A DNA stretch of 64,000 nucleotides from an uncultured Methanoregulaceae archaeon (lineage in GTDB: Archaea > Halobacteriota > Methanomicrobia > Methanomicrobiales > Methanospirillaceae): positions 1,120,001 through 1,184,000 of the forward strand of contig OY970061.1 of the NCBI GenBank assembly GCA_963705255.1. The letters are read 5' to 3'. The notes below the pieces were generated by a model that had not been told where the DNA came from, made no database searches, and saw nothing but the letters and a program-made list of their open reading frames with translations. The translations under genes and the position numbers were made by a program. Shown here in pieces: positions 7,772 to 57,735 of the stretch. The number at the start of each line of letters is the position of its first letter. Position 1 is the stretch's first letter.

Positions 7772-7846
7772 CGGGCGAGGGGGGATTTGAACCCCCGGCA
7801 TTCAGCTTAGGAGGCTGACGCTATGTCCGGGCTAAGCCACTCGCCC
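7772..7846 (-). tRNA. tRNA-Arg (CCT)
   Basis: Reverse strand GGGCGAG...TCAGC-CT-CCT-AA-GCTGA...GGTTCAAATCC...CTCGCCC-G; cloverleaf, no intron, no encoded CCA. Confidence 0.96.
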
Positions 7847-43131: not shown

Positions 43132-44028
43132 ATGACAGGGAAGTGGGAGGGGAACACAGACGGGCTGTCGGCCGGTACTCTCACCCGTGTCCACCTGACC
43201 AACCTTGGCAAAATGATGTTCCCTGCGGCCAGGGTCACCAAGGAAGAGGTCATCACCTACTACATACGGATGGCCCCGCGGATGCTCCCGTTCCTGCAGG
43301 ACCGCCCGCTCACCATGCACCGCTTCCCGGACGGTGTGGGCGGGGAGGATTTCTACGAGAAAGATGCCCCCCGGGGGGCCCCGGACTACGTGGACACCTT
43401 CACCCGCCGGTCGGAGACTGCCGGCCGCGATGTGCACTTCGTGGTCTGCAACAACCTCGACTCGCTCATCTGGCTTGCCAACCTTGCCTCCCTTGAACTT
43501 CACATCGCCCTCTCGACACAGGCTGCCTATGATTCCCCCGACTTCCTGCTCTTCGACATCGACCCGGAACCGCCGCTTACGTTTGATGATGTCCTCATCG
43601 TTGCCCGCGTAGTCCGCCAACATCTGGAGGATGAAGGGATCCATCCGTACGTGAAGACCTCCGGGAAAAAAGGGCTCCATATCGTCGTGCCCCTTTCCTC
43701 CGGCCACAGGTTCGATGAAGTCCGGGCATTCGCCCACAGTACCGGGAAACGGATTGCACGGGACATGCCGTACGTGGTCTCCGAGTTTCCCCGCTCCCGG
43801 GACGCCGGGACCATCTTCATCGACTACCTCCAGAATGCCCGCGGGAAGACCATGGCGGCCCCCTACTCGCTCAGGGCGACTCCCGGTGCGAGCGTATCCG
43901 CACCGCTCGAATGGGACGAGATCCGGGAGGGGACCCGTCCCGAAGATTTTAATATCAGGACAATGATCTTCAGGAAAGAGGATCCATGGAGGGGAATCTT
44001 TGAAGACAGGCAGTCGATCAGAAGATAA
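43132..44028 (+). CDS. ligD: NHEJ primase-polymerase (stand-alone LigD Pol domain)
   Basis: LTNLGK, RPLTMHRFPDG, FYEK, LIWLANLASLELH, FDIDP, KTSGKKGLH, FIDYLQNA.GKT.AAPYS.RA. Confidence 0.92.
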   Translation: MTGKWEGNTDGLSAGTLTRVHLTNLGKMMFPAARVTKEEVITYYIRMAPRMLPFLQDRPLTMHRFPDGVGGEDFYEKDAPRGAPDYVDTFTRRSETAGRDVHFVVCNNLDSLIWLANLASLELHIALSTQAAYDSPDFLLFDIDPEPPLTFDDVLIVARVVRQHLEDEGIHPYVKTSGKKGLHIVVPLSSGHRFDEVRAFAHSTGKRIARDMPYVVSEFPRSRDAGTIFIDYLQNARGKTMAAPYSLRATPGASVSAPLEWDEIREGTRPEDFNIRTMIFRKEDPWRGIFEDRQSIRR

Positions 44029-44071
44029 GCCCGGCAGCCGGTCACGGAAAGACCGGCCCAGGGATGAGAGC

Positions 44072-44968
44072 ATGGTTGCCGGTACAGTACCGCTGATAGC
44101 AGATGGTACGGTGGGCCGGCAGACCGGAAGAACGAAAAAGTCCGTCTCCTCCGTCCCGCCGGAGCCGCGGGCGGAAGGTTCCCCGGCTGGCAGGGCCGGG
44201 CGGTCGTTCTGGAGCGGCACCATCTCCATCGGCCTGATCAACGTACCGGTCAGCCTCCACACGATGACGAGGGACCGGTCCTTCTCCTTCCGGCTGCTCC
44301 ACCGCGGCGACGGGCAGCCGCTCCGGTACGACCGGGTATGCACAAAGGACGGTCGGGTGGTCCCCTGGGCTGAGACCGTGAAGGGGTACGAGGTCAGGAA
44401 AGGGGAGTTCCTCGTCTTTACACCCGATGAGCTGAAAGCGGTGATGCCCGAATCCGACCGGAAGATCCGGATCGAGAAATTCGTGTTCTACCTCTCCCTC
44501 GACCCGATGTACTTCGAGACCAGTTACGTGCTCCTGCCGGACCGGAGCGAGGAGGCGTATGCCCTCCTCGTCACCGCCCTCCATGACCTCGGGCGGGCGG
44601 CGGTCGGGAGCATCACGCTCAGGACGAAGGAGTACCCCGTCGTGGTCCATGCCTATAGCGGGGGGCTCGTACTGACCACCCTCCGGTATGCCGACGAAGT
44701 CACCCCGCCCCGGGCATTCGACGTGATGGCCGCCCTCCCGGCCCCGAAGGAGACCGAACTTGCCCTTGCAAAGCGGATCATCTCGGAACTCTCCGGGGAT
44801 TTTTCCCTTGCCGGCTTCCACGACCGGTACCGGGAAGCCGTCATGGCGCTGATCGAGAAGAAACTCGCCGGGGAGAAACTCGTGTACCAAGAGCCCAGCC
44901 ATCCCGAGGAGGCAAAAGAGCTGATGCAGGCCCTGCAGGAGACGCTTGCCACCCTCTCCGGTAAATAA
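44072..44968 (+). CDS. ku: Ku DNA end-binding protein
   Basis: SFWSGTISIGLINVPVSL, FRLLH, VKGYE, IEKFV, YFETSY, AYALL..AL, L.YADEV, F.DRYREAV..LIE.K, LMQAL..TL; start uncertain. Confidence 0.93.
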   Translation: MVAGTVPLIADGTVGRQTGRTKKSVSSVPPEPRAEGSPAGRAGRSFWSGTISIGLINVPVSLHTMTRDRSFSFRLLHRGDGQPLRYDRVCTKDGRVVPWAETVKGYEVRKGEFLVFTPDELKAVMPESDRKIRIEKFVFYLSLDPMYFETSYVLLPDRSEEAYALLVTALHDLGRAAVGSITLRTKEYPVVVHAYSGGLVLTTLRYADEVTPPRAFDVMAALPAPKETELALAKRIISELSGDFSLAGFHDRYREAVMALIEKKLAGEKLVYQEPSHPEEAKELMQALQETLATLSGK

Positions 44969-44991
44969 CCTGCCATGTATCCTGATCCTCC

Positions 44992-46591
44992 ATGAAACGA
45001 TACCTTCCCATGCTCCCGGAATCCGCTGCCGGCCCGTTCAGCGGCGACGAGTGGCTCTTTGAAGTCAAGTGGGACGGGGTCCGGGCGATCGCCTACGTGA
45101 ACGACACCCTGTCGCTCATGAGCCGGAACGGCAGGGAACTGGCGGGACAGTTCCCGGAACTTGGCGGACTCACCACCCTCGCCCCGGGGACCGTGCTGGA
45201 CGGGGAGATCGTAGCGATGAGCGGCGGGAAGCCCGAAATCCAGGCCCTCCTCCCCCGGGTCCAGGCTGCTCCGGGGGCTCCCTCCACGGGACGGGGAAGT
45301 CCCTGTCACCTATATCGTCTTCGACATCCTTGAAAAGGACGGAAAGGACCTGACCGCCCTCCCCCTCTCCGAGCGGATGAAGGTCCTTGAAGGTTCGGTG
45401 AGGGAGGGGCCCCACGTGGCACTCTCCGTTCCCGTAATCGGTCGGGGGGAGGAGTATTTCCGGGCCGCAGTCGCCCGGGGACTCGAAGGGGTCATGGCAA
45501 AACGGAGGGACAGTCCTTACGAGTCCGGCGTGCGGAGCGGCTCCTGGCTGAAGATCAAGGCTCAGAGGACCTGCGACTGCGTCATCGCCGGGTATACACC
45601 GGGTCAGGGCCGGCGTGGGGCGGCATTCGGTGCCCTCCTCCTCGGCCTGTACAGGAGCGGAGGGGAGGGGGGTTCTCCTGCGGGAAAAAGGGGCTCCCGA
45701 CGCACCTCCCGGACCGTGCCCGACCCGCCGTACGCCCGGAGCCTTGTCTCAGTGGGCAAAGTCGGGACCGGCTTCCGGGACCAGGACTTCGCGGACCTTA
45801 TGGCGATCTTCTCGCGCTACCGCACCCCGGTCCCGCAGCTGGAGGAAGACGGACCCGCAGGGGAGGTTGTCTGGCTGGAGCCGGTCCTCGTCTGCGAGGT
45901 GGCATTCCAGGCAGTGACCCGGGACAGGAAGCTGCGGATCGCCCGGTTCATCCGGCTCCGCCCTGACAAGCAGGCAGAAGAGTGCACCCTGGACCAGTTC
46001 CGGGAAACAGAGGTCCGCAGCGGGCCGGGAAAATATCCACCGGAACTTCCTTCCACTGCCGGAGCGGGGAGTGCCGGGGGCGTCCTTCCCCAAAGAAAAC
46101 CGGTACAAGGGGGCCGGCAGCGGGGACCGGCGCAGGAACAGGCAATGAGGAGTTATCATGAACTACGGAATTTTTCACGGACAACGGAACCGGAGGGAGC
46201 GACGACCATGAGCGGTGAGGGGAGATCTTTTGTCATCCAGGAACACCACTCGCACAAACTGCACTATGACCTGAGACTGGAGCGGGACGGCGTACTCAAA
46301 AGCTGGGCGGTGCCCAAAGGCGTACCGGAGGCCCCGGGAGCAAAGCACCTCGCGGTGGCGGTCGAGGACCACCCGCTGGAGTACAAGAATTTCGAAGGGA
46401 CGATCCCGGCCGGGGAGTACGGGGCCGGTGAGGTCATCATCTGGGACAGCGGCACCTACGATACCCGGGCCTGGCAGGACGACAAGATCGAGGTCACCCT
46501 CCACGGGAAACGGCTGTCGGGGCATTATGTCCTCGTCCGGTTCAAGCGGGCCGGGAAGAGCGAGTGGCTGGTCTTCAAAGCCGGGAGTTGA
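44992..46591 (+). CDS. ligD: ATP-dependent NHEJ ligase with an in-frame C-terminal 3'-phosphoesterase (LigD PE) domain; 1-nt frameshift near 45295
   Basis: EVKWDGVR (I), LDGEIV (III), YIVFDIL (IIIa), EGVMAK (IV), WLKIK (V), OB-fold VGKVGTGF...F.RLRPDK; linker; then YHELRNFSRTTEP, FVIQEH...HYDLRLE, KSWAVPKG, VEDHPLEY. Confidence 0.9.
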
Positions 46592-46715
46592 TCGGGGAGA
46601 CTGCAGGCCGGGGCCTGGTGGCCTGATGGCCTGGCCCGCAAGCGGGTTTCCGGTCCGGACCATATGCCGAATCGCCAATAATTATCATGCCAGACGATGA
46701 GACGTAGTACCAATA

Positions 46716-48162
46716 ATGCCGGATCACGATTCCATATCCGTCCTCTACGTTGACGACGAGATATCGCTGCTGGAAATCACCCAGCTGTTCCTGGGAAAGG
46801 CCAGCGGTTTTTCTGTCAGGACGACCACTTCCGGGGCAGAGGCACTCGATATCCTCTCGTCCGGCAGGTTCGACGCTATCCTCTCCGATTACATGATGCC
46901 GCAGATGGACGGCATAGAATTCTTAAAGCTCGTCCGGCAGCAGGACCCCGAGGTCCCGTTCATCCTCTTTACCGGCAAGGGCAGGGAAGAGATCGTTATC
47001 CAGGCGATCAACAACGGGGCCACGTTTTACGTACAGAAGGGCGGCGACGCGACGGCCCAGTTCACCGAGCTCGCCCACAAGATCCGCCAGGCAGTCTCCG
47101 CCACCCGATCCAAGGAGGCACTCCGCCAGTCCGAGATGCTCCACCGGACCATCTTTGAGACCTCCCCGGATGCCATCACGCTCACCAACGCGGACGGGAT
47201 CCTCAGTTACACATCTCCGGCCGCCATCAGCCTGTTCGGCCTCGCATCGGAGAAGGACGCTCTCGGCACACCCCTCTTTGACTGGATTGTCCCGGAGATG
47301 CGCGAAGAGGTAAAAGAACGTGTCCTCCAGTTCATCCGGAGTAAATCACCGACCTCGTCGTCCGCACTCTTTCTCCTGCAGAGAAAAGACGGGACCCGGT
47401 TCCATGCCGAGATCAGCTCGTCAGTGCTGACCGGCGCCGACGGAAAGGCGGTCGGGATGATCTCAATCCTCCGCAACGTGACCGACCGCATAGCGTCAGA
47501 CGACGCACTCCGGAAGGCCGGCGCCAAGCTGAACCTGCTCTCGTCGGTGACGAGGCACGACATCCTCAACCAGTTGACCGTCCTCATAGGGTACATCGAG
47601 CTCGCACGGCGGGCAAAAGACCCGGCCGCGGTACAGGACTTCCTCCGGAAGATCGACGAGATCGCCGGGATGCTGGGCGACCAGATCGAGTTCACCAGGG
47701 ACTACCAGGAACTCGGCGTGCACAGCCCCAGCTGGCAGTGCGTCGCTGACATCGTCTCCCGGGCAGCATCCGGGCTGGGGACGGGGGATGTGAAGGTTGT
47801 CAACGAGTGCGGGGGGCTCGAGGTCTTTGCCGACCCCCTGTTTGTCAAGGTCGTGTACAACCTGATCGACAATGCCCTGCGGCACGGGGGACCGGTCAGC
47901 ATCATCCGGTTCCGGTACCGAGGAGAGCGGGGATGACCTTGTGCTCTTGGCCGAAGATGACGGGGAAGGGGTCCGGGTGCAGGACAAGCAGAAGATCTTT
48001 TCCAAAGGTTTTGGCAGGAACACCGGCTTTGGCCTCTTTCTCGTGCGGGAGATCCTTGCAATCACCGGCATGAGCGTTGCAGAGACCGGGTTCCCGGGCA
48101 CGGGTGCACGGTTTGAGATCGTGGTGCCCCGGGGGAATTTCCGGTTCCGAAACGCAGAGTAA
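46716..48162 (+). CDS. Hybrid receiver-PAS-histidine kinase; 1-nt frameshift near 47918
   Basis: VLYVDDE, SDYMMP.MDG receiver; PAS; SSVTRHDILNQL, NLIDNALRHG; EDDGEG, TGFGLF in the next frame. Confidence 0.88.
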
Positions 48163-48356
48163 GATAAAACGGCTTTTCGCTGAAAGCAGGCCCCGGAAGC
48201 GTGACACATGAGGGTTCTGTGCCACAGGTCTGTGGGAGACCCGGGGTTGGTCCCGACACCAGAACGGTTGGTTTTCTGTCCCGTATCACTTCACATACCG
48301 GCCCCGCCGCCAGTGACCCCTGACAGATCTCTTTACCGGCTCCCGTGAGAGGGCGG

Positions 48357-49103
48357 TCACTCACCAATCACGACCGTCGCCTTCTCGTCGAACGGGTTCG
48401 TCCGCATCGCAAGGCTGAACAGGTACGGGTAATGGTTCTTCAGGTATTCCATGTACTTCAGCCACTCGGGCACCAGCCGCACATACCCCCGCTCCATGTC
48501 GCCGACGAGGTGGGCGATGTCGGAGGGGGGCAGGTGCAGGAGATCGGCCCGGGCCTTTAACTCCTCATCAAGATGGGTGACCGCGAGGATCAGGTCCGTG
48601 AAGGATTCGTGCTCGAAGACCATCGGGTTCTCCACAATGCGGAGGAGAAAGTCCTCATTCTGCAGGAGAAATGCCCGCAGCGCTTCGCGGTCGACGCGTG
48701 CCGGGTCGATTCTGCATTTCCAGCTCGTCAGGCCCTCGTGTGCTTCACGGAACCGGTCCGCGGTCCAGTCAGTGCCTGCCACCATCTGTGACTGGAGAGG
48801 CCCGGGGCATGGATCGGCCCAGGCGAGCATGGCGAGCAGCGGGGTCCCGATCCGGGAGAAGAAGATCCCGATCACCATGTTCATCTTCTCCAGCCGCTGC
48901 TGCCGCTCCCGGGACTCCAGCATCTGGTCGATGACGAGCGTGACGATCAGGACTTCGATGGGGATGAAAGCCAGATCCGCGAGCAGGTAGGTGAACAGGT
49001 AGCGTGAATCCTGGAATAGGAGGTAGTGAACTGTCATCAGCAGGAGGGTCAGCGTCACCAGACCGATGCCCGCGATCGCTTTCCAGCGGGTCTCTTCCTT
49101 CAT
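48357..49103 (-). CDS. Conserved hypothetical membrane protein
   Basis: Two N-terminal TMs; DLAFIPIEVLIVT, KMNMVIGIFFS.IG, ENP.VFEHESFTDL, YPYLFSLA.RTNPF. Confidence 0.75.
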   Translation of the reverse strand: MKEETRWKAIAGIGLVTLTLLLMTVHYLLFQDSRYLFTYLLADLAFIPIEVLIVTLVIDQMLESRERQQRLEKMNMVIGIFFSRIGTPLLAMLAWADPCPGPLQSQMVAGTDWTADRFREAHEGLTSWKCRIDPARVDREALRAFLLQNEDFLLRIVENPMVFEHESFTDLILAVTHLDEELKARADLLHLPPSDIAHLVGDMERGYVRLVPEWLKYMEYLKNHYPYLFSLAMRTNPFDEKATVVIGE

Positions 49104-49298
49104 GATGTGGTATCTGGTACACGACCAGATAAAAAAGCCGGTGCTGTCCCTCCCTGACAGCGGCACCAGTCCGGCAATGCCCGGTCCATTCTCCGGTCAA
49201 TGAAGGAAAAATATGAATCCGGTACCTTTTCCAGTATAAAAGATGTGATCGGTTCCAGGGTACCGGACTTCAGCAGACAAGCCCGGTTTCGTCCTGTC

Positions 49299-49775
49299 CT
49301 ACCGCTTCCGTGCTACCATCTCGATCTCGACATTTGCCCCTTTCGGCAGCCCTGCCACCTGTATGGTGGCCCGGGCCGGGTAGGTGTCGTTGAAGTATGT
49401 CCCGTAGATCCCGTTCACCGTTGTCCAGTCGCTCATGTTCGTAAGGTATATCCGCGTCTGGATAACATCGGGAAAACCGAGCCCGGATGCCGCAAGGACG
49501 GATTTCAGGTTCTCCATCGCCCGGGTGGTCTGCTCCCCGGCCGTACCGGACAGGTTGCCGGTCGCCGGGTCGATGCCGATCTGTCCCGACAGGAAAACAA
49601 GGTCCCCGGACTGCACGGCCTGGCTGTACGGCCCGATGGGTTTCGGTGCACTTTCCGTGAAGATTGCCCGAAGCCCCGGGCCTGCCGGGTGACTGACAAT
49701 CCCGGTGAGCAGGACGCCGGCCAGGAAACCGGCGGCAAATATCAGTACTATCAGCAATCCGTTTCTGGCATCCAT
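49299..49775 (-). CDS. RidA/YjgF family protein with an N-terminal hydrophobic segment
   Basis: APKPIGPYSQAV, FLSGQIG, N..YGTYF...YPAR, LPKGANVEIE. Confidence 0.88.
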   Translation of the reverse strand: MDARNGLLIVLIFAAGFLAGVLLTGIVSHPAGPGLRAIFTESAPKPIGPYSQAVQSGDLVFLSGQIGIDPATGNLSGTAGEQTTRAMENLKSVLAASGLGFPDVIQTRIYLTNMSDWTTVNGIYGTYFNDTYPARATIQVAGLPKGANVEIEMVARKR

Positions 49776-50123
49776 TCCGATCCATCCTCTTGCTGTACCC
49801 GTCTGCACCCATGCCACCATAAGCGTTCTGAAATGGATCTCCCCTCAAAAGAACCGGAGCGGCTATCAATGCGGGGGCGGGAGAGAACTCCCCCGGAAAC
49901 GGTTCTTGTCAGCCATTCCTGGAATATCCCCGTACCTGGACCGGCGGTGCGTTATCCCGGACCATCCGGGGGATACCCCGCACGGCCCCGGAGCATGAGG
50001 ACAAGGATGAGCCGGCAGCAAATTACCTGCCGAAGGGTCTCTCCTGCACCGGTAATATTCCCGGGACCAGGCGAAATATCCCCTATCCAAACCTTAATCG
50101 ACCCCGGCGCTGAGGATGCCTCC

Positions 50124-50639
50124 ATGTCCAGAATAGCAGTCATCATCACGGACATGTTCCAGGACGTGGAATACGAACGCCCGGCCGAGGTCTTCCGGAA
50201 AGCCGGCCATGAGCTCACCCTCGTCGGCCTCAGGGCCGGCGTCCAGGTAAAAGGCGAGCACGGGGCCGTCGCGAAGATCGGCAGGGCGGCACGAGATGTC
50301 TCGGCAAAGGATTTCGACGCCCTGTTCATCCCCGGCGGATACTCGCCCGACCGGCTCCGGGTCGACGAGGACGCGCTGCGGTTCACCCGGGAGTTCTTCG
50401 AGGATAAAAAACCGGTCTTTGCCATCTGCCACGCTGCCCAGCTCCTCATCACCGCCCAGGTGCTGAAGGGCCGGCGCGTGACGGGATGGAAATCCATTGT
50501 GCAGGATATCAAAAACGCTGGGGCCGAGTACGTGGACGCCGAAGTTGTCGTCGACCGGAATCTCGTCTCGAGCCGTAAGCCGGACGACATCCCCGCATTT
50601 GTCCGGGAATCGCTGAAGATGCTGGAGAAGAAGAAGTGA
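50124..50639 (+). CDS. pfpI: PfpI/DJ-1 family protease/deglycase
   Basis: FQDVEY, DALFIPGGYSPD.LR, AICHAAQ, VDRNLVSSR.PDD. Confidence 0.9.
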   Translation: MSRIAVIITDMFQDVEYERPAEVFRKAGHELTLVGLRAGVQVKGEHGAVAKIGRAARDVSAKDFDALFIPGGYSPDRLRVDEDALRFTREFFEDKKPVFAICHAAQLLITAQVLKGRRVTGWKSIVQDIKNAGAEYVDAEVVVDRNLVSSRKPDDIPAFVRESLKMLEKKK

Positions 50640-51193
50640 AATCCGGAACGGGTAAAAAAACACCAAAAAAAACGTCATCCCCTCACCAGAATCCATCTCA
50701 TGCCAGCCCGGACACTTCCGGCAGGCAGTTTCCGGTATTTTCTGCAAAAATCCTGTTTTTTACCCTTGCACAGGACCCCCTTTAATTTTCGTCCGAAATG
50801 GCACTCCGGTTTGTGCCGGGTTTCCCGACAGCCAAATCATTGTTCATCTTCCGGGTCCTGACAGAACCCCGCTAAATTGCACGGTTTTTTTCTGCGTAAA
50901 AAGGCGATTTTATCAAAATATCGATTTTAACGAAAAATTTTACCGGGCGTTGGCACCATTTCCACTGGAGGTTTATGCCTCCCGATCCGGCCTGAAACCG
51001 CTCCGTCGGAGAATAGATCCTGGGAGACGTACCGTCCGGGCGTTCTTCTTCCGAAGGAGGTACGCCACCTCTCCTGCTTAAATGTGACGAAGTGGATATT
51101 CAAGGTCTCTTATCCATCGATGGTTACGTTGGTATCCGGCATATGCTCCCGCCCGTGGTCTTCCCCGATTTTCAAGCAGTACATCCAAAAAAA

Positions 51194-51219
51194 TATAACT
51201 TATAGCACTATAGGTTATA
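51194..51219. promoter_or_regulatory. Near-perfect palindrome overlapping the promoter of the antitoxin gene, putative autoregulatory operator
   Basis: TATAACTTATAG-CA-CTATAGGTTATA (one mismatch), immediately before ATG 51222. Confidence 0.6.
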
Positions 51220-51221
51220 GC

Positions 51222-51518
51222 ATGCCATTGCAGCAGAAAGTCCCGGCCAGAAAACAATCCGGCCGGATAACAAACAAGAAATCCCCTGTTACTACAAAAC
51301 CCGAAACCCCCCGCACGACTACCATCCAGATATCAGGGGCCACCAAGAGCGACCTGGACCGGGTAAAACGCGAAGCGGAAGCATCGACCTATGAGGACGC
51401 AATCCGGTTCCTGCTGCACGAACGGAAGAAACACCGCCCCTCGACCTTCGGACTGCTCGCGGGCGGGGCATCGTTCGTCCGTGACGAGGAGGAGGATTCC
51501 TATCGGGTACGTCATTGA
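51222..51518 (+). CDS. Putative VapB-type (RHH-like) antitoxin
   Basis: TTTIQIS..TKSDLDRVK....STYEDAIRFLL...STFGLL; overlaps the PIN gene. Confidence 0.7.
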   Translation: MPLQQKVPARKQSGRITNKKSPVTTKPETPRTTTIQISGATKSDLDRVKREAEASTYEDAIRFLLHERKKHRPSTFGLLAGGASFVRDEEEDSYRVRH

Positions 51519-51873
51519 TACGTGGGTCTGGGTGGAATACTGGCTGGGGAACGAAGCGATGAGAGAGTGGATCGAAGGCCAATCTCCCATATTCACCTCC
51601 ACGATCACGCTTGCAGAAACCGTCCGGTATTTTCTGGCCAGCGGAAAGGATGAGGCAACAATCCGTCTCTGTCTCGATGATATCCGGGCACGGAGTACGG
51701 TGGTTCCGGTGGATGAGACCATCGCGATTGCTGCAGGGCAGCTGAAAAAAAGGGAAGTGGCGGGAATCGCGGACTCAATCATTCTCGCCACCGCACGGGC
51801 CGGCGATCACAAAGTCGTGACCGGTGACCCGCATTTCAAGGAGATCCCGGACGCGGTATATCTCGGTCCGTGA
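51481..51873 (+). CDS. vapC: PIN-domain VapC toxin
   Basis: YVIDTWVWVEY, TITLAE, GIADSIILATA, VVTGDPHF acidic PIN motifs; start uncertain (GTG 51481). Confidence 0.88.
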   Translation: MTRRRIPIGYVIDTWVWVEYWLGNEAMREWIEGQSPIFTSTITLAETVRYFLASGKDEATIRLCLDDIRARSTVVPVDETIAIAAGQLKKREVAGIADSIILATARAGDHKVVTGDPHFKEIPDAVYLGP

Positions 51874-51989
51874 CCGGGCCAACCGGTATCTCTGTTTTCC
51901 GGGACCTCCCCGCGATGCTCTGGCGTGTGCATGCGAAAAAGCGGCTAACCGCGCCATTCTGCTTTTCCGGGCGGGGGTTGGTCCCAGCT

Positions 51990-52262
51990 GAGGGGGGTAG
52001 GGGATACAACCCCCCCTCCATTATTTTTTCCGGAGGGGGGTAACCCCCCCATCGTTTTATTTTCAAATCGCGTCGACCCCCCCCCCCCTTACCAGAATTG
52101 GGAACCCCCGAAAATCTGCGGCTTTATCTGTAACTCCATGCGCAATACTGCCCGGTCACTTGCGCAAAAGAGGGGCTTACTCAAATCCGGGGAGGGGGGT
52201 CAGCGGTCGACCCCCCCCCTCCGTTTTATTTTCAAGAGGGGGTGACCCCCCCCCATCCCCTA
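51990..52262. repeat. Composite G/C-run palindromic element with duplicated motifs
   Basis: CGTTTTATTTTCAA twice (~52053, ~52223), GTCGACCCCCCCCCC twice, GAGGGGGG-T(A/G)A-CCCCCCC hairpins twice. Confidence 0.6.
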
Positions 52263-52444
52263 CTGGTTTTTTAGAATGGACGAATGGATAATTCCGGAAA
52301 GTATTGAGTTATGATTTTTTAAGATTGTTTGATGATCAAAAAGAAATCTTGAAGAAGAGCAATACGTAATATGGAGTTAATGATAAATAATTGAATATTG
52401 GTATAACTATCTGATATTGAATTTGGAAAAATTTACTGATAAAA

Positions 52445-53569
52445 ATGGCTAATCCAGTAAAGAAATTAAAAATTGAAGATTTGATTACAAATTTGTACGA
52501 AAATTCCAACTCTGATACTTTACTTTTTAAAAATATTGATAATATTTTAAGTCGTGATAAGGGAGTGAAAATTAATGGTCTATTACTTACTTCGAAAGAG
52601 GATATTATCAAAATTTTTGATTCATATAAATTCTTTGATTTTAGTTGGAAATACAAATCGCTTGGAAGCGATATCTATCACTTCACCTTGACAAAAAAAG
52701 TAAAAAAAGACAATTCATTAATCCAAGGGGATTTCCTTCTATTCAAATATAAACCTCAAAATAACATTTATCTCGTGATAACCCACGGAAATTATCATTT
52801 CTTTAAAAATGGACTTATTCGTTTATTGAATAAATTCTACCCATTAATTTCTAGACCTTATATTGATACAGCATTTATGCGGTTGTTGTTGGAAACCTAC
52901 GAATCAAAATTAAAAAATGAAAAAATTTGGATAACTCGGTGCGTTACAAAAAAAATAATTGGCTCCGACATTCATTACACAGATTTGCCTTTTCGTGATG
53001 TATTTGATAAAGTTTTAGAGAATGAAGAATGGGTTAAAAGTATTGATTTTAACTTAGTATTTCAGTCTTCTAAAGACACCATTTATTCAGAACAACCTTT
53101 AATGGATCATAAATTCTTCAAATTATTCCGAGATACACGTTTTCAATGCAATTACGATTTCACAATTTTCTACCAAAGATTAATTGAAGGAATGGCAAAT
53201 AAGGCTGCTGAGTCATTCGAATTATTTGATAAACGAGAAAGAATTAAAGAAGAAAATTTTACCACAAAACCGCTCGCTATTGTTTATGACATTAGTGTCT
53301 TTAAAGATAAAAATCAAAATAAAATATTAATCAATGCTCTGAAAAAAATTAAAAATTCTTCGGTTTCTGTTCTTCACGCGAATCCCTATCTCCATGTTTC
53401 TTATGTTGATTATAACGATGGCTCTTCTTGCGATATTTGGGTTCTTTCAGAAAATAAAATTTCAATTATTCCTCAAATTCGTTCAACCCCCGCCGCATTA
53501 GAACGATTATGTGAAAATATTTTCACAGGATTTCGGGAAGGTATCGTAAAGGATGTCAGGAGTCAATGA
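52445..53569 (+). CDS. Hypothetical protein (374 aa), gene A of an AT-rich two-gene unit
   Basis: Long intact AT-rich ORF; C-terminal SVLHANPYLHVSYVDYNDGSSCDIWV...IIPQ...ALERLC..IF..FREG; no family confidently recognised. Confidence 0.8.
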   Translation: MANPVKKLKIEDLITNLYENSNSDTLLFKNIDNILSRDKGVKINGLLLTSKEDIIKIFDSYKFFDFSWKYKSLGSDIYHFTLTKKVKKDNSLIQGDFLLFKYKPQNNIYLVITHGNYHFFKNGLIRLLNKFYPLISRPYIDTAFMRLLLETYESKLKNEKIWITRCVTKKIIGSDIHYTDLPFRDVFDKVLENEEWVKSIDFNLVFQSSKDTIYSEQPLMDHKFFKLFRDTRFQCNYDFTIFYQRLIEGMANKAAESFELFDKRERIKEENFTTKPLAIVYDISVFKDKNQNKILINALKKIKNSSVSVLHANPYLHVSYVDYNDGSSCDIWVLSENKISIIPQIRSTPAALERLCENIFTGFREGIVKDVRSQ

Positions 53570-54609
53570 TGGCAACTGATGGAGTTCAGCGGTTAAAAGA
53601 TGAATCAGATAATTATGAACAAACAGTAATAGCCATAATTTCATTTGCACATCTTTTGCGTTATGATGATTCCCCAAAGAACTATCTTCCAGATTCAGTT
53701 TTTTTCATTGGAAGAAAAATGGACACATCCCCAAATAACCGGATAAATCCAAATTCTTTTGCGACACCTGATCTTATTCTTCAAATAAGTCCGAAATATG
53801 GAATTGTTGGGGAAGTGAAAAAATCCTTGCCCCAAAATAAAGAATTTTGGAAAAAATATTTTAGACAACTCCAAAAATACGATGATGATTTAAAGGGATG
53901 GAAAACCCCAAATGAGAAGATACAAAAAATGGATCTTGTCTTTTTAACGGATTATCTTCTTAAATCTGAAGTACTAGAATACATTAAACTAAAAATTCAA
54001 ACTGGTGAATTTAAAACAAATAATAATTTTTGTGTTGTCACTTTTATGAGATTACATGAATCTGAAGAAAAGTTTACTTTTGAAAATATTAGCGGAAAAT
54101 TCTCCGATATGTACGCCAATGAAATTTTAAAAATTGGTACACCGAGAGCAATGCCTCTTGAAGATGTTATGAATTATAATAAAAATTTCACAGTGAAATT
54201 TTACGATTCTCCCCCTCCTTTGCCGTATATGATGATGGTATTATGGGACAATATTTTTCCCAGTATTAAGACCATTGAACAATACATTGATGAGAAAGGA
54301 AAAAAACGACAAAAATTTGAAGTCAATATTGATTTTTTAACCAATGAGTTAAGGGAGAAATTTTCTCACAATGCGAATCATGATTCTCGACAAAAGAAAA
54401 TTCCAGAAAAAGATTGGGTTAAAAAGGCGATGGATGAATTTGTAAGATTAGGATATGCCGAAACTAAAATTGATGATAAAAACAGTTACATTGTAAAAAA
54501 GCGACTAATAAAAGAACCGTTGGAAAGATTTTGTAAAGACGTTGAAAAAGGACGTTCTTTAAAACTTGGAACAATTCAAAAAACTCTAGAAAAATGGACT
54601 GAAAATTAG
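53566..54609 (+). CDS. Putative PD-(D/E)xK nuclease (347 aa), gene B of the AT-rich two-gene unit
   Basis: TPDLILQ...IVGEVKKS...FRQLQKYD (PD...ExK plus QxxxY); ATGA overlap with gene A. Confidence 0.68.
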   Translation: MMATDGVQRLKDESDNYEQTVIAIISFAHLLRYDDSPKNYLPDSVFFIGRKMDTSPNNRINPNSFATPDLILQISPKYGIVGEVKKSLPQNKEFWKKYFRQLQKYDDDLKGWKTPNEKIQKMDLVFLTDYLLKSEVLEYIKLKIQTGEFKTNNNFCVVTFMRLHESEEKFTFENISGKFSDMYANEILKIGTPRAMPLEDVMNYNKNFTVKFYDSPPPLPYMMMVLWDNIFPSIKTIEQYIDEKGKKRQKFEVNIDFLTNELREKFSHNANHDSRQKKIPEKDWVKKAMDEFVRLGYAETKIDDKNSYIVKKRLIKEPLERFCKDVEKGRSLKLGTIQKTLEKWTEN

Positions 54610-54652
54610 TTGAATTTTTATCACTTCATCACAAAGAGAAGTAATAAAAAGA

Positions 54653-54844
54653 TTACTCACCCTTCACAACCCTGACGCCATCGATCTTGATATAGCGCCG
54701 TTTCAGGTTGTGCTTGCTGCCGATCACGGCAAAGGTGCGCTCCTTCGCCTGGTTCTCGTTGGGTGCCTCGATCACTTTCGTGTACGGCATCCAGTCCTCG
54801 CCCATCCGGAAGGTTCCTTTCACTTCAAACTTCTGATCTGCCAA
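54653..54844 (-). CDS. rplX: 50S ribosomal protein LX (L18Ae/L20A)
   Basis: FEVKGTF, YTKVIEA.NE..AKERTF..IGSKH.LKRRYI.I; TTG start after GGAGTGA. Confidence 0.92.
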   Translation of the reverse strand: MADQKFEVKGTFRMGEDWMPYTKVIEAPNENQAKERTFAVIGSKHNLKRRYIKIDGVRVVKGE

Positions 54845-54849
54845 TGTAA

Positions 54850-55512
54850 TCACTCCAAAAATCCAAATACGTCCTCAATCCTGCCCAGTTCAAATCCGCT
54901 CGTCGCGTTGCCGGCGATGTAGCCTGACTCGTTCACGAGGAGGCCGGTGCCCACGAGCCCGCTGCCCATGTTGACCGAGCCCGTCCCGACCGGGACTTTT
55001 GCTACCTGCTCGAGCCGTGCGATCTGCTGCTCGGTTGCCCGGGGGTGCACGATCACGCCCTTGTTGGTCGCGACTCCTGCCATCCCCACGGTCTTGACGC
55101 CGCCGAGCACGAGCGTGATCACCTCGACCCCGAGGAACTCGCCGATCGCGTGCATCATGTCCGTGGGCATGTCCGGGTGGACTGCGGCAAAGCTGTCGTT
55201 CGCCATGATCACGTTGCCCGCGGCGTTCATCGACTCGTGGAGCAGCAGCACCTCGCGGTGCTCCGCCAGGATATCGACCTCGTCTTCGGTTGCCAGCCCC
55301 GAGACAACGAGGCCCCGGCTGTTGCCGGCAACGAGCGAGCCGATGATGGTGCTTCCCTGGATGGTGGTCTCGACCAGCTCCACGTTGAGAGCCGCCTTCA
55401 CTGCCGCCCTGAAATCATCCGTTGACTCCGGGGGGATGATGGCGATGTCCCCGAGCACCCGGGCAAAGACCCCGATGTTCGGATCGCCGGCGAACGTGAT
55501 CGTCCTGTCCAT
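54850..55512 (-). CDS. eif6: Translation initiation factor 6
   Basis: [58 protein letters not shown]. Confidence 0.95.
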
Positions 55513-55513
55513 C

Positions 55514-55780
55514 TTACGATTCCGGTGCAAGTTCTGCCTGAACCTGCCCGTCCTCCATCTTCATGGCCCGGACCCGGATCTTGGACGGCGGCTTCTGGCT
55601 GCCCCGTGCCCAGACCTTCTCGTTGATGCCCTGGTCGATCTTGACGTCCTCGCTCTTCATGTGCTTGGCGAGGTACTTCCTGATGTCCTTGATAGCGCCG
55701 TTGGACCGCTTCCAGCGGGGCATCCGCCGTGCCTCACGCAGGGGGATGATATAGATGTGCTCTTCCATCTTCTCTGCCAT
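55514..55780 (-). CDS. rpl31e: 50S ribosomal protein L31e
   Basis: IYIIPLR, KR...[28 protein letters not shown]. Confidence 0.95.
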
Positions 55781-55783
55781 AGC

Positions 55784-55936
55784 TCACACCTTCAGCGTGC
55801 TCTTGCGCCAGTTGCGCCTTTTCGGGTGCGCAACTACCGAACGCTTGGTCCTGACCATAACCCACTGGGGCACGCGCCGGTTCTGGTCGCACGCCTTTGC
55901 AAGCCGGATTTTCCTGCCTTTGCTTAGTCTGCTCAT
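55784..55936 (-). CDS. rpl39e: 50S ribosomal protein L39e
   Basis: [17 protein letters not shown]...HPKRRNWR. Confidence 0.95.
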
Positions 55937-55953
55937 CTTCTTCACCTTGGTAA

Positions 55954-56541
55954 TTATCCTTTCCTGCCCACCACGAGCGATTGTTCGTGGTGCTCCGGGA
56001 ACAGGGGGGCATAGTCCAGCCCGCGGGCCCGGAACGCCTCCCTGATCTCTGCTTCGTAGTCGCCGTTCCGGATCGTCCCCGTTTCCCCATACTCTACGAT
56101 GAGAAACCGGTCTGAAAGCCGGTCGACTTCCGCCCTGACATAGCCGAGCAGGGGCCGCACGTACGAACACCCTGTCCTGCTGCCGAGGCTCTGGACCGCA
56201 TCGCGGGTGAGCATCGGGACCCGGTCATCAAACCGTGTGCCGTCCCCGACCACGTCATACTCACCCGCAAGCGTTTCCACGGCGGCCTGGTGCACGCGGT
56301 TGATGGCATCGTTCGGATACCCCTTCTCCATGACCAGGTCCACCATTTTGTTCAGCAATCCTTTCTCAAATACTCGTTTCCTGTGGGGAAACCCCAGCGC
56401 TTCTGCCGCAGCCTCGACCATCGGGATCCGGCGGGACGGGTCGAACACGAACGTGTTGAGTTCGACCTCATAATACGTACCCAGCATGATGGATGCAAGG
56501 GAACTGTCCTTTCCGCCGCTGTACAGCACTCCGGCTTTCAT
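55954..56541 (-). CDS. Conserved archaeal PP-loop (adenine nucleotide alpha hydrolase) protein
   Basis: [35 protein letters not shown]; conserved position between PDCD5 and rpl39e. Confidence 0.85.
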
Positions 56542-56879
56542 TATTTCCGTGTTATGGAGTAATCCCGTTTGGCGGGCGCGAGCTGCCTGAGCAGCTCCTT
56601 GAACTGTGCATCAGTGATCTTCTTCTGCAGCCGTCCGCTCTGTGCGAGCGCGATGAGCTGCTGCTCGACCGCGCTGGCGAAATCCGGCTTGGTGAGCTTG
56701 ATGGTATTCAGGCGTTCCCGTGCATCCGGCTCGAGGATCTGCATGAGTATCATCTGGATCTGGGATTTCTGGCGCTTCTGGCGTTCGAGCTCTTCCTGCA
56801 TCGACTGCTGATCGCCAGCCTGCTGCTGCAGCTGCGCCATCCTGCGTTTGCGGAGTTCGTTAAGCTCGTCGTCTCCCAT
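56541..56879 (-). CDS. PDCD5-family DNA-binding protein
   Basis: [42 protein letters not shown]. Confidence 0.93.
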
Positions 56880-56888
56880 ACTGCTGCC

Positions 56889-57500
56889 TCACTTGGCTGC
56901 TTCAGGTTTTTCAGCTTTCTTGCCTTCAGCCTTCTCTTTCTTGGCTGCCGGCTTCTTCTCTGCCTTGGCACCCTCGGCGCCTTCGGCTGCCTTCTCGCCG
57001 CCCTTCTTCTTGCCTTCCTTCCTGCCGTCGGCCTTCTTGGGCTCCTCGGCAACCGGCTTGGCACGCTTCGGGACGGGCGGTGGCGGGGTCATCTTCACTT
57101 CCTGTGCCATGGCATCGAGGAAGGCCATACCTGCAGGCGAGACTTTCCGGCCGGTCTTGTCGTGGACAAGGAGCCCTGCTGCCTCCAGCTGCTGGACAGA
57201 CTTGCGCAGGATCGACCCGCTGCCCTTGCGGAACGCGTTGGGCCTGGAGCCGCGGTTCTTGTTACCGCCGTAAAAGCTTCGCATCCTCTCGACACCCAGA
57301 GGGCCGTCGACATAGATGCGCCTCAACACTGCTGCTACCCGGATGAACCACCAGTCGGGGTCTTCCGGGGGCATCTCTTTGTGCACCCCGGTCTTTGCAA
57401 AGGCGGCCCAGGCGGGTGGAGTGATCTCCTTCCGCTTCTTGAGCTCCTCGGCAACCCTCCGGATGATGTGGTCAGCGGGGACATCGTATACTGTTGTCAT
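56889..57500 (-). CDS. rps19e: 30S ribosomal protein S19e with a Lys/Ala/Glu-rich C-terminal extension
   Basis: TVYDVPAD, PAWA.FAKTG..KE.PP...DWW..R.AA.LR, GSGSILRK.VQQLE. Confidence 0.95.
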   Translation of the reverse strand: MTTVYDVPADHIIRRVAEELKKRKEITPPAWAAFAKTGVHKEMPPEDPDWWFIRVAAVLRRIYVDGPLGVERMRSFYGGNKNRGSRPNAFRKGSGSILRKSVQQLEAAGLLVHDKTGRKVSPAGMAFLDAMAQEVKMTPPPPVPKRAKPVAEEPKKADGRKEGKKKGGEKAAEGAEGAKAEKKPAAKKEKAEGKKAEKPEAAK

Positions 57501-57735
57501 CTACTACCTCACTGTTGAATAATGAAATAACAGTCTTATGTTATTTGTGAGGAAGGTTCTTATATATTTCCAAGATCCAACCGTCGCGGAAGCGAGGGAT
57601 GGATGGAGAAAAATTCATCAGAATTCTTCGACAGGGATGAGATCGACGGATCGGGGGAAAGGTCAATCATCCTGATTCGAGATCAATTAAATCAGGCTCC
57701 ATCAATAATATCTTCTTTTAAAAATTCTTGTGAGG

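Follow-up and report, generated by a model that had tools for sequence, protein, structure and literature searches.

A mobile two-gene cassette in an AT-rich archaeal islet pairs a predicted RdgC/RexA-class protein with a putative PD-(D/E)xK nuclease

The 64,000-nucleotide stretch analysed here (hereafter the window; positions 1,120,001 to 1,184,000 of contig OY970061.1, assembly GCA_963705255.1, from an uncultured Methanoregulaceae archaeon) contains two adjacent genes, A and B, which form a translationally coupled, strictly co-inherited and co-diverging unit. This unit is horizontally mobile. The product of gene A is predicted to adopt the fold of RdgC and lambda RexA, and that of gene B is a putative PD-(D/E)xK-type nuclease. 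On balance, though narrowly, we take the pair to be a horizontally mobile, two-subunit, methylase-independent nuclease module that acts on invading DNA in virus or plasmid exclusion; it is the genomic context that points to a role in defence. What is new is a widespread, uncharacterised, nuclease-based two-gene cassette with an RdgC/RexA-class putative sensor, which is well supported as a cassette and whose function we infer.

As the preliminary description of this DNA had it, the two open reading frames (ORFs; 374 and 347 residues) are intact, lie in AT-rich DNA within a GC-rich host and are joined by an ATGA overlap. The GC content is 0.28-0.33 in 500-base segments from 52500 to 54499 and 0.58-0.65 in both flanks, and amounts to 0.30 for the pair and 0.59 for the remainder of the window. 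At the junction (CAATGATGGCA), the TGA that ends A and the first ATG of B share bases in the sequence ATGA. In the database, B begins at its second ATG and is 346 residues long, and the residue numbering of B used below follows that start. A word search found full-length homologues of A in 18 clusters at an expectation value (E) ≤1e-3, and full-length homologues of B were found in 22 clusters at the same threshold. Two ORFs of >340 residues in DNA of 30% GC, each with full-length homologues, are beyond chance. The left edge of the AT-rich islet is defined by the GC shift 3′ of a set of G/C-run repeats, and its right edge falls 23 nt beyond the B stop codon, leaving ~20 nt to the end of the ribosomal protein gene rplX, because it is there that homology with the closest relative resumes.

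The pairing of A with B, for which the preliminary description had looked to the gene neighbourhoods of homologues, is borne out by them. A scan with the B profile, covering one genome per species, found 15 loci, which are distributed over Methanoregula, Nitrospirota, Anaerolineales, Chloroflexia (Chloroflexota), Limisphaerales and Gemmataceae bins (Verrucomicrobiota/Planctomycetota), Marinimicrobia, Clostridia, Thermodesulfobacteriota, Aenigmatarchaeota, Nanoarchaeia and others. In 14 of the 15, B is directly preceded on its strand by a homologue of A, and the remaining locus is truncated by the end of its contig. One stretch of DNA was recovered from two bins, as L004 and L005, and 13 distinct sequences carry both genes. 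In these two bins, A, B and all clustered flanking ORFs share coordinates and scores, and the bins are assigned to different phyla (Limisphaerales and Gemmataceae); the sameness could be a binning artefact or a very recent transfer. All-against-all clustering of the flanking ORFs of the loci revealed no third conserved gene.

The stop of A and the start of B overlap by 1-41 nt, or are 4 nt apart, in 10 intact loci including two on haloarchaeal plasmids. Moreover, the pairwise identities of A and of B are correlated over 13 pairs (Mantel r 0.74, matched in 0 of 5000 permutations), and the kinship of the pairs crosses taxonomy. For example, the Clostridia and Tritonobacter copies are 54-56% identical, and the copy in the window is equally near to those of Nitrospirota (32-35%) and Aenigmatarchaeota (33-34%).

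Mobility of the pair is evident from its distribution. The A profile detected the gene in 2 of 41 related genomes (own genome included) and in 1 of 28 among the high-quality genomes, and B is single-copy in its own genome. Between the window and the closest relative (G041; 96% identity over rplX-eIF6), collinearity extends over 44000-49215 and over 54633-57574, and between these blocks G041 carries a different 2.66-kb stretch of DNA (L034 4150-6811, in the place of 49216-54632 of the window). The site beside rplX thus appears to be an insertion hot spot, and the 'accessory block' of the preliminary description, correct in so far as a foreign islet is present, is better termed a variable hot spot. 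The filler in the relative includes an AT-rich gene (GC 0.29-0.35) for a 238-residue protein, which has a multi-pass membrane look by eye and is without a Pfam or PHROGs match. At 10 of 15 other loci, the GC content of the pair is at least 0.07 under that of its flanks. The pair is also found, in unchanged order, on Halosegnis and Haloarcula plasmids, and A-like genes alone have matches on plasmids of Natrinema, Halosimplex and Arthrobacter.

The family of A is not small, with 723 clusters (50% identity) at E≤1e-3, 594 at E≤1e-10 and 337 at E≤1e-30 in a full hidden Markov model (HMM) search of 1.84 billion representatives, yet it is functionally uncharacterised; the 150 best clusters listed are mostly of 350-390 residues. 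Mean column identity is 0.17 for residues 1-135, 0.21 for residues 136-265 and 0.39 for residues 266-374. The HANPYLH...FREG block in the last of these segments, which had been noted as motif-like, does contain 13 positions that are invariant in 16 homologues (H311, N313, P314, Y315, D322, D325, G326, S327, D330, P343, Q344, E365 and G366), and D322, D325 and S327 are still invariant in 65 diverse homologues.

The AlphaFold2 model of A, with a predicted local distance difference test (pLDDT) score of 89.2, comprises three alpha/beta domains. Its top Foldseek match is E. coli RdgC (2owl; E 1.5e-4, probability 1.00, 311 columns), followed by P. aeruginosa RdgC, Iml3/CENP-L chains (probability 0.72-0.96) and RnlA N-terminal domains, with RdgC 2owy matched at a probability of 0.97. 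The top matches among viral models are phage entries annotated as 'recombination-associated protein RdgC' or 'exonuclease' (E 1e-5 to 1e-3, probability about 1.00). Judged from its predicted structure, A is of the RdgC/CENP-L-type (RdgC/RexA/Iml3) fold class. According to the report on its crystal structure, lambda RexA has structural homology to RdgC and Iml3/Chl4, a DNA-binding fold class; DNA binding by the RexA/RdgC/Iml3 class is non-specific, and RexA is the sensor of the Rex exclusion system (PMC11077077).

At the level of sequence, A is without a match in Pfam, NCBIfam, PADLOC and PHROGs, and B is likewise without a significant one (the Pfam copy used did not contain the PF25924, PF27326 and PF27341 models). 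Searches that covered the RdgC family PF04381 returned 0 families at E≤1 for A and PF04381 in 0 of 65 A-family members at E≤0.01; a Pfam scan of these 65 diverse members gave only six single chance matches, and the A profile had no match below E 0.7 among PDB sequences, RdgC included. The earlier statement that A matches no recognised family holds for these four collections but has to be amended in one respect, as A is remotely homologous to MJECL33, a family of unknown function (hhalign, 65 versus 23 sequences; probability 85.5%, E 5.7e-6, 325 columns, near full length). In precomputed Pfam annotation, PF25924.1 is present on 23 of 23 MJECL33 relatives versus 0 of 18 A homologues (A included). 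The profile match without this label makes A a remote MJECL33 homologue and not a member at the Pfam threshold.

In gene B, the motif quoted in the preliminary description (TPDL...GEVKK...QLQKY) is present and conserved. Across 23 diverse homologues, P67 never varies and D68, E82, K84, Q100 and Y104 each show at least 90% conservation, and all six are also invariant or at least 90% conserved in the set of 22 homologues. The core of PD-(D/E)xK enzymes runs in the order alpha-beta-beta-beta-alpha-beta. The AlphaFold2 model of B (pLDDT 87.8) features a helix (residues 5-31), three strands (44-46, 69-74 and 77-84), a helix (91-104) and a further strand (120-128), with P67-D68 just ahead of strand 2, E82-x-K84 at the end of strand 3 and Q100...Y104 in the next helix. 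Model and conservation together give what defines such a core: an Asp where strand 2 begins and a (D/E)xK triplet within strand 3.

The assignment of B as a nuclease is well supported by motif and predicted topology but not by structural statistics. Its best Foldseek match (E 8.5e-3) is an unrelated protein, and the best nuclease match has an E of 0.03 and a probability of about 0.5. Among the weak matches (E 0.03-0.14, probability 0.2-0.54) are many PD-(D/E)xK enzymes, the list including BsmI, the large and small subunits of BspD6I, R2 endonuclease, SduA, SfsA, Bax1, Cap4, McrC, PaqCI and NucC; the B profile had no match below E 0.7 among PDB sequences. Thus the PD-(D/E)xK nuclease proposed earlier stands as a conserved signature on the right core, but its matches to the folds of solved restriction enzymes are weak (best E 0.03). 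The C-terminal part of B is modelled as two helices (254-265 and 281-293) and then a beta-hairpin (297-312), an arrangement that resembles a winged helix; W283, A287, A297 and Y307 are conserved in this region, which has one weak Foldseek match, to the regulator 3r0a (probability 0.51).

The modelled A-B complex reached an interaction prediction score from aligned errors (ipSAE) of 0.80, 0.79 and 0.78 in three runs, and the controls 0.00, 0.00 and 0.07. In calibration of the tool, its mark was reached by 58 of 80 solved complexes and by 2 of 110 mismatched pairs, counts that are approximate here, own alignments having been used. The runs share at least 93% of contacts, and the pLDDT of the partner is at least 83. 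All listed interface residues of A fall within 266-372, including the invariant HANPY...DGS...PQ block, and those listed for B (13-18, 161-167, 196-208, 223-232, 263-264 and 313-319) include no catalytic residue. The model supports, without proving, binding of A to B, and the simplest reading of the conserved C-terminal block of A is that of a docking surface for B. The same motif was also considered as a catalytic site and rejected, as it coincides with the predicted interface and no enzyme fold was matched. The suggestion that A is a sensor or scaffold gains support from the RdgC-like fold and the predicted interface, the sensing itself being a conjecture.

A predicted tight complex could also be that of a toxin with its inhibitor. 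On this account, B would be a toxic nuclease and A its cognate inhibitor in an addiction (toxin-antitoxin-like) module, whose loss kills the cell, with any defence being secondary. The putative inhibitor gene comes first and is translationally coupled to its partner, the module is solitary, being a 2.4-kb cassette on plasmids and in islets, and VapC/PIN or HicB-type genes adjoin the pair in the window and in L002. However, A has 374 residues, three domains and an RdgC-like fold, unlike the small type II antitoxins, and its modelled contacts spare the catalytic residues of B. The loci at which B is broken with A intact (L004, L013 and L014) fit both accounts equally, as loss of a costly effector. 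Taken together, we regard the addiction account as unlikely.

For a module excluding foreign DNA, the following mechanism is proposed. A would bind or encircle DNA via its variable N-terminal and middle domains and would recognise some feature of foreign or replicating DNA. The C-terminal domain of A is predicted to dock B away from its catalytic residues, so positioned that A might place or license B, and B would then cut the DNA. An A2B2 stoichiometry is possible, given that dimers are usual in both fold classes.

The surroundings of the pair were surveyed for 129 ORFs within 7 kb at 14 distinct loci, with 34 of the 129, nearest on either side, being scanned singly. The commonest neighbour families are of two kinds: (i) housekeeping, such as histidine biosynthesis, transport and catalase; (ii) restriction or defence, namely type I specificity subunits, type II methylases, UvrD/GajB-like helicases, ResIII, PDDEXK_3 and M78-HTH. 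Several of the neighbour families are counted as defence-associated. At 9 of the 14 distinct loci, the nearest ORFs include a restriction-modification, toxin-antitoxin, defence-associated or mobile-element gene (Table 1), which, as a tally without matched controls for enrichment, is suggestive of a defence-type neighbourhood.

The ORF list of the islet contains no methyltransferase. At 2 of the 13 distinct loci, an N6/N4 DNA methylase adjoins the pair (7399-8703 of L001, which is from the same genome as G008, and 6873-8066 of L009); these methylases are homologues, 23% identical (E 1e-17), and the two loci are very distant. The family is absent from the other 11 distinct pair loci and from the 64-kb window, and the own genome has no full-length homologue of it, the matches there spanning 45-64 residues (best E 2.9e-5, over 64 residues). 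The earlier claim of no cognate methyltransferase is right in that none accompanies the pair consistently and a close homologue is missing from the genome, but it has to be qualified by the two loci at which a methylase is adjacent. These mean that a restriction-modification-like variant exists, which may represent a methylase-linked sub-variant of the module.

The pair might then be a restriction-modification component throughout, with recognition by A and cleavage by B, and with the methylase unlinked, lost or replaced, or with type IV-like cutting of modified DNA. Besides the homologous methylases at L001 and L009, this is favoured by the weak fold matches of B, which are mostly type IIS or nicking enzymes (BsmI, BspD6I and PaqCI) and McrC, and by type I or Mrr-type restriction neighbours at L007 and L013. 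Yet the absence of the methylase family from 11 other distinct loci and the window, and of any full-length homologue from the genome, argues against it, as does the lack of any other gene conserved with the pair, and a classical restriction enzyme without protection would be lethal. We consider a restriction-modification component decidedly unlikely.

Several observations weigh against a two-subunit nuclease module for the exclusion of invading DNA. The template modelling scores (TM-scores) of A to RdgC are low, at 0.25-0.35, despite the probability of 1.00, as would be expected if the domain arrangement differs, and the 43 PDB matches shown for A (ranks to 50) do not include lambda RexA. For B, Foldseek against PDB gave 0 matches at E≤1e-3, and no PD-(D/E)xK family among the Pfam, NCBIfam and PADLOC HMMs was matched. 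B is interrupted by a stop or frameshift, with A open, at L004/L005 (3845-4954), L013 (9968-10985) and L014 (9965-11004), which could reflect effector decay or assembly error. The sole departure from the signature of B is the copy on plasmid pHMA33 of Haloarcula marismortui (L018 8128-9267). The protein encoded beside the A-like gene there can be aligned to B along 234 columns (hhalign E 8e-5), with D68, E82 and K84 replaced; this copy may be a catalytically dead or repurposed variant. Interruption of B at three distinct loci, together with the catalytic loss on pHMA33, implies a module that is often decaying or repurposed. Only housekeeping neighbours were found at 5 of the 14 distinct loci (L004, L008, L012, L014 and L015). 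Finally, a pattern scan of 2.9 million viral contigs with the A profile returned one stretch and 0 relatives, so there is no direct tie to phage biology, and the approximate calibration of the complex score belongs on the same side.

Membership of the pair in a prophage was considered and rejected, since the 2.4-kb islet holds no phage genes and the pattern scan of viral contigs gave no relatives. A further account would make the pair a helper of mobile elements in recombination, repair or replication, in which an RdgC-like modulator works with a nuclease and is not immune in function. The best folds of A are RdgC and the phage RdgC or 'exonuclease' entries, and phage RdgC-like genes occur among recombination genes; the pair resides on haloarchaeal and actinobacterial plasmids; and the distant MJECL33 family matches the virus family phrog_22469 (E 1.2e-47). 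However, the scan of the viral contigs found no relative of A, neither A nor B has a significant PHROGs match, no recombinase, integrase or replication gene is conserved beside the pair, and the pair is found in only 2 of 41 related genomes. A helper of this sort seems to us very unlikely, and exclusion of invading DNA by a two-subunit nuclease remains the reading that we prefer.

The positions of the features are listed in Table 1. The genes on the minus strand downstream of the pair, rplX (Ribosomal_L18A/LX, 54653-54853, E 1.5e-18), eIF-6, L31e and L39e, identify the host as archaeal, and the pair is convergent with rplX, as had been described. Upstream, the VapBC-like neighbour of the preliminary description is half confirmed: its VapC-type PIN gene is clear, but the ORF preceding it has only a weak, sub-threshold VapB-type match (E 0.11). 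The interval 51980-52270 between the VapC gene and gene A comprises three copies of a short unit, each consisting of a G-run/C-run hairpin and then CGTTTTATTTTCAA. The unit has at least six further sites in its own genome, often paired ~170-200 nt apart; it looks like a small dispersed intergenic repeat and is possibly a miniature mobile element. Rfam gave 0 matches at E≤0.1 over 51800-54900, no transfer RNA gene is near the islet (the nearest being at 7772 and 11167), and no convincing attachment-site-like direct repeats were seen flanking it. A sigma-70-type promoter scan was below shuffle expectation, such a bacterial-type scan not being meaningful for an archaeal host. Further upstream, only the last 169 residues (50130-50636) of a listed 479-residue ORF at 49200-50639 match DJ-1/PfpI (E 1.6e-50), and this ORF is probably over-extended. 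Sequencing runs with words of the locus comprise eight DNA or metagenome rows, one with 0.86 of the sampled words, and no RNA sequencing run is listed among them.

Table 1. Features of the islet and its surroundings (positions in the window), and neighbours of the pair at other loci.
Feature	Position	Strand	Basis
AT-rich foreign islet, sole content genes A and B	52270..54632		GC shift; homology of relative resumes at 54633
VapC-type gene with PIN domain, upstream of islet (context only)	51391..51873	+	PF01850, E 1.7e-17
Gene A, three alpha/beta domains, RdgC/CENP-L-like predicted fold	52445..53569	+	AlphaFold2 model, Foldseek
C-terminal domain of A (residues 266-374), HANPY...DxxDGS...DIW...PQ...EG block, predicted docking surface for B	53240..53566	+	conservation and complex model
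Gene B, PD-(D/E)xK-type core, middle region and C-terminal winged-helix-like part	53566..54609	+	ORF, AlphaFold2 model
Putative catalytic stretch of B, P67 D68 ... E82-V-K84 ... Q100-L-Q-K-Y104	53767..53880	+	conservation
Winged-helix-like region of B (residues 254-312), including WVKKAMDEFVRLGYAE	54328..54504	+	model and weak Foldseek match
Neighbours of the pair, L001 and L009: DNA methylase			
Neighbours of the pair, L002: PIN and HicB-like			
Neighbours of the pair, L003: HEPN-DUF499			
Neighbours of the pair, L006: HTH-M78			
Neighbours of the pair, L010: KAP NTPase			
Neighbours of the pair, L007: Mrr-type nuclease, RAMA, helicase-PLD protein			
Neighbours of the pair, L011: IS110 transposase, RHS protein			
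Neighbours of the pair, L013: HsdR-like			

The pair was compared with known systems and families. Consistent with the preliminary expectation of an undescribed system, no named defence system of PADLOC-DB 2.0.0 was matched: A hit 0 families, and B matched no system component, its only hit being to ZorA over a short stretch (E 0.019). Full-text literature searches found no relevant functional study of the pair, of the MJECL32/MJECL33 families or of an RdgC-like anti-phage system. From type II restriction-modification the pair differs in having no cognate methylase. With type II toxin-antitoxin modules it would share binding between its two products, as predicted, but A is of 374 residues with three domains, and the catalytic residues of B are left uncovered. 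The commonest weak fold matches of B, namely BspD6I, BsmI, PaqCI and Shedu SduA, have PD-(D/E)xK chemistry in common, and BspD6I also shares the two-subunit design; all of these matches are at E≥0.03 and a probability ≤0.54.

A close counterpart by gene arrangement is provided by MJECL33 (PF25924) and MJECL32 (PF27326), function-unknown families named for adjacent genes of the large plasmid of Methanocaldococcus jannaschii. The M. jannaschii pair shares the gene order, with MJ_RS09135 (405 residues) before MJ_RS09130 (438 residues) and a 20-nt overlap. The latter we take to be the RefSeq number of the MJECL32 gene, and the PF25924 label suggests that the former is the MJECL33 gene. The M. jannaschii pair adjoins VapBC, and genes for type I restriction, an OLD-type endonuclease, EVE and PIN proteins are found in the region. 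The MJECL33-type protein of this plasmid (L016 20123-21340) is the one that matches phrog_22469, a virus family of unknown function.

An MJECL33 profile found 22 loci in 19 of 401 genomes of the phylum, this genome not being matched at E≤1e-5, and at 12 of the 22 loci a same-strand ORF overlaps or lies within 60 nt downstream. Among 10 aligned partners, the PD is invariant and in most is followed by a triplet of ExK- or DxK-like type, and the next segment has an invariant Tyr, the position of the motif resembling that in B. In profile comparison, B and MJECL32-like partners matched at E 0.053 and 0.041, which is not significant and concerns the C-terminal part only; when A and B were compared with the M. 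jannaschii pair by single-sequence profiles, significance was not reached either (E 0.0072 and 0.16). In a language-model atlas, clusters among the nearest to A have PF25924 in 19-42% of members or PF27341 in 11-15%, and a cluster near B has PF27326 (MJECL32) in 30% of members (score 0.93). The closest relative, which is without A-B at the rplX site, has a strong MJECL33-family gene elsewhere (L038, G041:C3:201497-202624, E 7.3e-111). Therefore, both sister cassettes occur within this genus.

RdgC itself (2owl and 2owy), along with phage RdgC-like proteins, gives the best fold matches of A, and Iml3/CENP-L match too. RdgC differs in that no sequence match connects it with A and the TM-scores are the low ones given above; ring formation and DNA binding by A are putative. 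RdgC is a chromosomal housekeeping protein, and we know of no nuclease partner for it. To our knowledge, the RdgC-class fold is known in immunity only from lambda RexA.

The Rex system resembles A-B in design. RexB is a membrane protein. In the present pair, by contrast, the effector is a presumably soluble PD-(D/E)xK-type nuclease-like protein, and what is common to the two systems is the fold class of the first subunit. Both are two-gene modules, and according to the RexA report the first protein of Rex is a DNA-binding sensor (PMC11077077). As A would fall in the fold class of RexA, Rex offers a precedent for a sensor of RdgC fold that governs a separate effector.

If A and B do exclude invading DNA, they would represent a compact, methylase-free nuclease system of 2.2 kb common to archaea and bacteria, and would provide a testable model of an RdgC-type DNA clamp controlling an effector, which bears on the poorly understood action of Rex. 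The antiviral systems of archaea have been little mapped, and a cassette clonable in one piece offers a practical way into them. More tentatively, and as a possibility that we hold to be less than probable, A-B may be one branch of a large and ancient immune class across Archaea and Bacteria, in which an RdgC/RexA-fold sensor clamps invader DNA or replication/recombination intermediates and licenses a docked PD-(D/E)xK nuclease, with MJECL33/MJECL32 as a sister branch and RexAB as a membrane-effector variant. In that case Rex, an exclusion system known for longer than most, would belong to a sensor family that spans the domains.

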